Assembly (NCBI RefSeq): GCF_045037415.1
Contig: NZ_CP173438.1
DNA length: 64,000 nucleotides
Source: Escherichia coli
GTDB taxonomy: Bacteria; Pseudomonadota; Gammaproteobacteria; Enterobacterales; Enterobacteriaceae
Direction: 5' to 3' (one strand)
In this document: positions 23,317 through 24,170 of the stretch, piece by piece
Layout of the letters: each line of letters starts with the position of its first letter
Numbering within the stretch: the first letter of the stretch is position 1
Made by a program: the position numbers and the translations under genes
The notes under the pieces: generated by a model
The model's database searches: none
The model's input: the letters and a program-made list of their open reading frames with translations, nothing else
Told to the model about the DNA's origin: nothing

Positions 23317-23407
23317 AGTTATCCTTCAATCATATCGACAATTCGAAAAGAAGGTGATGCTGCCAACTTACTGATTTAGTGTATGATGGTGTTTTTGAGG
23401 TGCTCCA

Positions 23408-23683
23408 GTGGCTTCTGTTTCTATCAGCTGTCCCTCCTGTTCAGCTACTGACGGGGTGGTGCGTAACGGCAAAAGCACCGCCGGACATCAGCGCTATCTC
23501 TGCTCTCACTGCCGTAAAACATGGCAACTGCAGTTCACTTACACCGCTTCTCAACCCGGTACGCACCAGAAAATCATTGATATGGCCATGAATGGCGTTG
23601 GATGCCGGGCAACAGCCCGCATTATGGGCGTTGGCCTCAACACGATTTTACGTCACTTAAAAAACTCAGGCCGCAGTCGGTAA
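23408..23683 (+). CDS. insA: IS1 InsA
   Basis: 91-aa [40 protein letters not shown]. Confidence 0.93.
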
Positions 23684-24105
23684 CCTCGCGCATACAGCCG
23701 GGCAGTGACGTCATCGTCTGCGCGGAAATGGACGAACAGTGGGGCTATGTCGGGGCTAAATCGCGCCAGCGCTGGCTGTTTTACGCGTATGACAGGCTCC
23801 GGAAGACGGTTGTTGCGCACGTATTCGGTGAACGCACGATGGCGACGCTGGGGCGTCTTATGAGCCTGCTGTCACCCTTTGACGTGGTGATATGGATGAC
23901 GGATGGCTGGCCGCTGTATGAATCCCGCCTGAAGGGAAAGCTGCACGTAATCAGCAAGCGATATACGCAGCGAATTGAGCGGCATAACCTGAATCTGAGG
24001 CAGCACCTGGCACGGCTGGGACGGAAGTCGCTGTCGTTCTCAAAATCGGTGGAGCTGCATGACAAAGTCATCGGGCATTATCTGAACATAAAACACTATC
24101 AATAA
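23602..24105 (+). CDS. insB: IS1 InsB frame, expressed as InsAB' by -1 frameshift
   Basis: 167-aa ORF in the -1 frame relative to insA; slippery ttaaaaaac at 23657-23665. Confidence 0.9.
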
Positions 24106-24170
24106 GTTGGAGTCATTACCATCGAAACGTTCATCCAGCGCCATGACATGTCCATTCGGGAAGCAGCACA

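Follow-up and report, generated by a model that had tools for sequence, protein, structure and literature searches.

In the sequence as given, a complete copy of the insertion sequence IS1 occupies the place of about 5.5 kb of chromosomal DNA in an Escherichia coli operon for D-tagatose utilization, and we judge it about 95% probable that the sequence contains an IS1-associated deletion of the genes concerned. The locus is the EcN tag cluster for D-tagatose use, located between accC and yhdT (PMC9720028), and it lies within a stretch of 64,000 nucleotides that we analysed as a whole and call the window. Our reference is E. coli SK1144 (NZ_AP018784.2), a finished genome and the window's best match, whose IS-free version of the locus we denote L001.

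RESULTS

A complete IS1 that lacks a target-site duplication

The element shows the structural features of the IS1 family (Table 1). Its length and its imperfect 23-bp inverted repeats match those of the family exactly (GGTGATGCTGCCAACTTACTGAT and GGTAATGACTCCAACTTATTGAT), with 18 of 23 positions agreeing between IRL and IRR, and insA and insB' are joined by a -1 frameshift at the A6C motif to encode the InsAB' transposase. Both open reading frames match the NCBIfam profile for IS1 family transposases (NF033558), one across profile positions 1-81 (91.3 bits) and the other across positions 75-199 (145.6 bits). The window copy has 100% nucleotide identity to the canonical 768-bp IS1A / IS1R of E. 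coli and R plasmids, with the same terminal repeats, insA, insB' and A6C motif; its full length is likewise identical to many chromosomal and plasmid copies annotated as IS1A. Judging from its sequence, an element with both reading frames and the frameshift site intact could have been active. It is the only IS1 anywhere in the 64-kb window.

In contrast to the canonical elements, the window copy is not bordered by a target duplication of 8-9 bp, and one of its flanks has been replaced by a deletion. Insertion of IS1 usually produces a direct duplication of 9 bp, sometimes of 8 bp. On its left this copy abuts the 9-mer CGAAAAGAA and on its right ATCGAAACG, and no flush direct repeat is present at its ends at any length from 3 to 14 bp. 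The original prediction had described an IS1 at this position without a duplication, and we verified the 768-bp element, both of the 9-mers that it gave and the missing repeat. The duplication is absent because of the flanking deletion and not because the element falls outside the IS1 family. An old duplication that has since decayed is ruled out, as both flanks are 100% identical to the IS-free relative SK1144, where they are 5.5 kb apart.

Two near-identical octamers are found beside the breakpoints. One, TCGAAAAG at 23343-23350 (L001 9475-9482), ends 2 bp to the left of IS1, and the other, TCGAAACG at 24122-24129 (L001 15005-15012), starts 1 bp to its right. We considered and rejected the pair as a degenerate or offset duplication, since both octamers are native to the IS-free genome, 5.5 kb apart, and are out of register. 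Their likeness, a post-hoc observation, is probably due to chance.

The element replaces 5.5 kb present in a closely related genome

SK1144 is collinear with the whole 64-kb window apart from the IS1 replacement, which is the sole structural change between them, and differs from it by 10 mismatches in 63.2 kb. On either side of the element, the window's positions 13869-23352 (9,484 bp) and 24121-39820 (15,700 bp) have 0 mismatches to SK1144 across 25.2 kb. Between these two flanks, SK1144 has 5,519 bp (L001 9485-15003). The end points of the deletion match the IS1 termini to the base and the IS1 has been retained, as is expected of an adjacent deletion. Because the end points coincide with the termini so exactly, the element took part in making the deletion; this base-exact correspondence is the signature of an end made by a transposase rather than by a random deletion. 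We rejected a random deletion followed by a separate IS1 insertion, which would have left a duplication. An inversion or translocation between distant IS1 copies is excluded by the collinearity of both flanks across 64 kb.

Eight of the 10 substitutions fall within the 23S and 5S rRNA genes, and only about 2 are located outside rRNA genes in 58 kb, at 12818 (acrF) and at 42881 (the aaeR-aaeX intergenic region). Consequently, the deletion is very recent, and few steps are expected to lie behind it. The rRNA substitutions cluster within window positions 2617-5148, in the rrn operon at the window's start, and include the adjacent pairs 3348/3349, 3358/3359 and 5147/5148. Point mutation seems a less fitting explanation for them than heterogeneity or gene conversion among the copies of the rRNA operon, or a choice made in assembly. 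A separate observation concerns a truncated pseudogene annotated in SK1144 between accB and acuI (YedZ-like, sulfoxide reductase heme-binding subunit; window 27544-27930, L001 18427-18813); its label in strain 20409 is cytochrome b family. SK1144 and the window do not differ at this place.

According to the RefSeq annotation of SK1144, the lost DNA comprises the right-hand 258 bp of a 340-bp divergent intergenic region, the gene for a tagatose-bisphosphate class II aldolase, the ABC-transporter genes for a substrate-binding protein, an ATPase and a permease, and the first 909 of the 963 bp (94%) of the tagatose kinase gene (CDS L001 14095-15057). The deleted aldolase scores 477.6 bits against NCBIfam TIGR01858 (tagatose-bisphosphate aldolase), above the cut-off of 443.55, and the deleted kinase scores 412.9 bits against NF049991 (tagatose kinase), where the cut-off is 420. 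RefSeq labels the latter only 'sugar kinase', which may be because its score just misses the cut-off. The original prediction, made from the window alone, was that missing transporter or catabolic genes could have been removed from this module; a genome with identical flanks that has the aldolase, ABC-transporter and kinase genes within the 5,519 bp bears this out.

Table 1. Features of the IS1 element, its two junctions and the retained parts of the tag locus (window coordinates)
Feature	Position	Strand	Details
Complete IS1, IS1A type	23353-24120	+	768 bp; identified by terminal repeats, ORFs and identity to IS1A copies
IS1 left terminal repeat (IRL)	23353-23375		begins GGTGATGCTGCCAACTTACTGAT
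IS1 right terminal repeat (IRR)	24098-24120		ends ATCAATAAGTTGGAGTCATTACC
insA	23408-23683	+	GTG start
insB' frame	23602-24105	+	
A6C frameshift motif	23659-23665	+	within TTAAAAAACTC at 23657-23667
Left junction	23352..23353		L001 9484/9485; AT-rich intergenic DNA, 75% A+T over +/-50 bp
Right junction	24120..24121		L001 15003/15004; inside tagatose kinase gene, 44% A+T over +/-50 bp
Kept sugar kinase gene, homologue of ECOLIN_RS18705	21473..22408	-	100% to SK1144 WP_001296457.1
Kept DeoR/GlpR-family regulator gene, homologue of ECOLIN_RS18700	22440..23270	-	100% to SK1144 WP_000843962.1
Surviving 82 bp of 340-bp divergent control region	23271..23352		aligned to L001 9403-9484
3' remnant of tagatose kinase gene, homologue of ECOLIN_RS18675	24121..24174	+	54 bp; window resumes at L001 15004
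Intact aldose-1-epimerase-like gene, homologue of ECOLIN_RS18670	24171..25217	+	100% to WP_000787058.1; Pfam DUF4432 PF14486

The allele and other IS1 insertions across E. coli genomes

To survey the flanks, 700 bp of each were joined without the IS1 and queried against 5,426 complete E. coli genomes. Both flanks are present in 1,421 of these genomes, and in all 1,421 they lie more than 1.2 kb apart. The original prediction had named an IS-free version of the locus, collinear with these flanks, as the observation that would show nothing was lost; no such version was found (0/1,421). Of the 5,426 genomes, 1,420 have a single stretch that covers at least 80% of the 5.5-kb interval.

Neither junction was recovered from the collections that we searched. 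A 300-nt probe across the left junction has no match in the 5,426 complete E. coli genomes, a set that does not include the window's exact lineage. In the same genomes, a 300-nt probe across the right junction has a single match, in strain 20409, which is an unrelated IS1 elsewhere in the kinase gene. The junction 36-mers ATCGACAATTCGAAAAGAAGGTGATGCTGCCAACTT and AAGTTGGAGTCATTACCATCGAAACGTTCATCCAGC have no exact match in JGI metagenome contigs, where the window's lineage is not represented. Among contigs encoding the exact epimerase protein (24 of 30,250 blocks), there is one more IS1-interrupted draft (L010), which does not carry the window's allele.

Counting the window, there are four independent IS1 events in the tag operon. 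Strain 20409 (NZ_CM190155.1) carries an IS1 in the kinase gene that is 96.4% identical to the window copy and has an 8-bp duplication, AAATATTC (L002 8383-9150). The ST131 strain 2017_APHA (NZ_CP051615.1) carries one in the ATPase gene that is 93.2% identical and has a 9-bp duplication, CGGATTTCA (L005 5224-5991). In the draft GCA_018492305.1, another IS1 isoform, with about 94% identity to the window copy, sits at a contig break close to the end of the ATPase gene (L010 1-242). The element lies in operon orientation in the three cases that are fully readable, and the copy at the contig end of GCA_018492305.1 is consistent with it. The insertions in 20409 and 2017_APHA thus resemble the window's in being inside the tag operon, in the same orientation and with the operon inactivated; they differ from it in being other isoforms at other sites, with normal duplications and no deletion. 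As neither shares a junction with the window, they are not its precursors.

Such insertions are rare: at least 2 of the 1,422 complete genomes in which the interval has a match carry an IS1 inside it. Genomes have about 11 IS1 matches at the median, which gives a uniform expectation for 5.5 kb of about 0.012 IS1 per genome, a rough value that ignores clonal inheritance. We set aside an IS1 hot spot, or selection for loss, since the observed count shows no sign of enrichment over this expectation. Accounts in which the tag operon is a recurrent IS1 target in B2/ST131, with the loss of tagatose use selected in some host niches, or in which the allele is a natural one-step IS insertion into a deletion break, appear improbable to us.

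How the deletion was made

We lean towards a mechanism with two events, an insertion followed by an adjacent deletion mediated by the IS1 transposase. In the first step, IS1 would have entered one of the two present junctions by ordinary transposition, making a 9-bp duplication; the AT-rich divergent control region beside the DeoR gene would be the likelier site. In the second step, InsAB' would have directed an intramolecular replicative transposition whose target lay 5.5 kb away in the same chromosome; such an event is the classical IS1 'adjacent deletion'. The DNA in between would have been released as a non-replicating circle with one IS1 copy and then lost, while the chromosome would have kept one IS1 with its original flank on one side and the new target on the other, hence no duplication. 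The order of the two steps, the junction that came first and the action of transposase rather than RecA are proposed here rather than seen in the sequence. AT-rich DNA is reportedly preferred by IS1, according to a 1985 study by Zerbib et al. that is listed in PMC9330008, and the compositions of the two junctions (75% versus 44% A+T) mildly favour the control region as one chosen target, without giving the order.

Adjacent deletions of this kind have a long history. Reif and Saedler are said to have described them for IS1 in the gal region in 1975, and Turlan and Chandler reportedly characterized replicative intramolecular IS1 deletions in 1995. The window's allele agrees with the IS1-promoted adjacent deletions of the gal region in that the deletion starts at an IS1 terminus, the IS1 is kept, there is no duplication and kilobases of DNA are lost; it differs in coming from a natural isolate without an observed precursor, and in that its dependence on transposase is deduced. 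In the long-term evolution experiment, all 14 events that combined an IS with a deletion and had no duplications were traced to an insertion that came first and an adjacent deletion that came after it (PMC11708052).

The same final structure can be reached by homologous recombination, and the original prediction had offered either an adjacent deletion or recombination between two IS1 copies; the comparison with SK1144 upholds an IS1-associated deletion, and its product fits both routes. By the second route, IS1 would have inserted twice, independently and in one orientation, into the control region and near the 3' end of the kinase gene, leaving a separate duplication at each site; the two copies would then have recombined by a RecA-dependent process that deleted the 5.5 kb together with one IS1. 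We consider this route less likely but credible. It predicts the product exactly, one IS1 with unrelated 9-mers on each side, IS-IS recombination is a recognised cause of absent duplications (PMC11708052), and IS1 has entered the operon independently in other strains, in the same orientation each time where it can be read. However, it takes three events instead of two, in a lineage only about 2 non-rRNA substitutions in 58 kb away from SK1144, and it calls for two insertions into an interval where IS1 is as rare as the survey found. Neither single insertion was found in the 5,426 complete genomes or the JGI metagenome contigs. The element also matches IS1A at 100% over its whole length and shows no chimerism, a trace that two identical copies would not leave either. 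Searching other IS1 copies for the matching halves of a duplication is uninformative about a plain deletion, because the reciprocal product would be the lost circle.

Two further explanations carry less weight. Ngan et al. 2024 proposed for IS5 and IS481 that an IS can be captured in one step into a break during an IS-independent deletion, with no staggered cut and so no duplication (PMC11708052). That work describes just this pattern, a deletion with an IS in its middle and no duplication, and a single step is compatible with the lack of a precursor in the databases. That lack is weak evidence, however, when the exact lineage is not in the collections searched; moreover, one-step capture is a hypothesis that has not been reported for IS1, and every traceable natural case of an IS with a deletion in the same study is a two-step adjacent deletion, which makes capture here quite improbable. 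We give even less credence to an assembly artefact, in which a short-read assembler mis-joined the flanks through a collapsed 768-bp repeat, the true chromosome having either two IS1 copies around an intact 5.5 kb or IS1 copies located elsewhere. Contigs classically break at IS1, which exceeds short reads in length, and the draft L010 does break at an IS1 in this very operon. Yet assemblers usually break at repeats and seldom skip unique sequence, and the window, an unbroken 64 kb, shows perfect collinearity to a finished genome on either side of the element. Even if such an error had occurred, there would be two IS1 copies in the operon, which would still be inactivated.

Consequences for the tag operon and D-tagatose utilization

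In the EcN tag cluster, the operon order is aldolase, binding protein, ATPase, permease, tagatose kinase and putative epimerase, with a divergent regulator/kinase pair (Ha et al. 2022; PMC9720028). K-12 lacks the cluster, and about 93-95% of phylogroup B2 strains carry it; D-tagatose induces it more than 40-fold, and it suffices for the growth of K-12, B and W strains on tagatose (PMC9720028). By the SK1144 annotation and its collinearity with the window, the window's locus has the same accC-yhdT location and the same divergent operon of a DeoR regulator and a kinase. Its chromosomal site and gene order are those of the EcN cluster, and Nissle 1917 matches the flank query at about 99%. The window differs in having lost the promoter region and five genes of the operon's six. 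In place of the full six-gene operon there is a remnant, made up of the epimerase-like gene plus the last 54 bp of the kinase gene. The strain itself is B2/ST131-like E. coli.

Two orphans are left: the regulator operon and, downstream, the epimerase-like gene. The regulator has DeoR-family NCBIfam matches, all under the equivalog cut-offs. The kinase that follows it, as the second gene of the regulator operon, is a paralogue of the tagatose kinase; NF049991 is its best match as well, at 337.5 bits against the same cut-off of 420. In a consensus scan, a promoter-like site for the regulator operon has been kept (TTCAAA-16-TATAGT, 23316 to 23289, minus strand), and promoter-like sites facing the tag operon (L001 9516-9551) sit within the deleted DNA; these promoter assignments in the divergent control region are ones that we infer from pattern matches. 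The epimerase-like gene, the only intact gene left of the six, is now separated from the operon's promoter region. By eye, TTGGAG within IRR has TTCATC, a poor -10 sequence, 17 nt after it, and we rejected these as a hybrid outward promoter reading from the right end of IS1 into the epimerase gene. Near that end, the one site reported by the promoter scan is weak and lies in the flank, at 24143-24172.

We predict that the strain is unable to take up or phosphorylate D-tagatose and would be Tag-negative. The prediction follows from the behaviour of EcN mutants: Nissle 1917 lacking the six genes, or the kinase alone, is Tag-negative despite the paralogous kinase in the regulator operon, which is 51% identical to the true tagatose kinase (PMC9720028). 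The deletion explains the window's incomplete sugar module, as its transporter and catabolic genes were present until recently and were removed in an IS1-associated event, with no growth on D-tagatose predicted in a lineage where about 93-95% carry the cluster. The result is of use for genome annotation and adds one more natural case of IS-driven gene loss. The allele was not found in the collections searched, yet it is an ordinary instance of a common, well-understood process; nothing here departs from known biology, and the understanding of IS1 and of tagatose catabolism is unchanged.

The part of the epimerase-like gene in tagatose catabolism is putative (PMC9720028), and its product has no NCBIfam match. 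In alpha- and beta-proteobacterial clusters, a tagatose-6-phosphate epimerase gene occupies its position.
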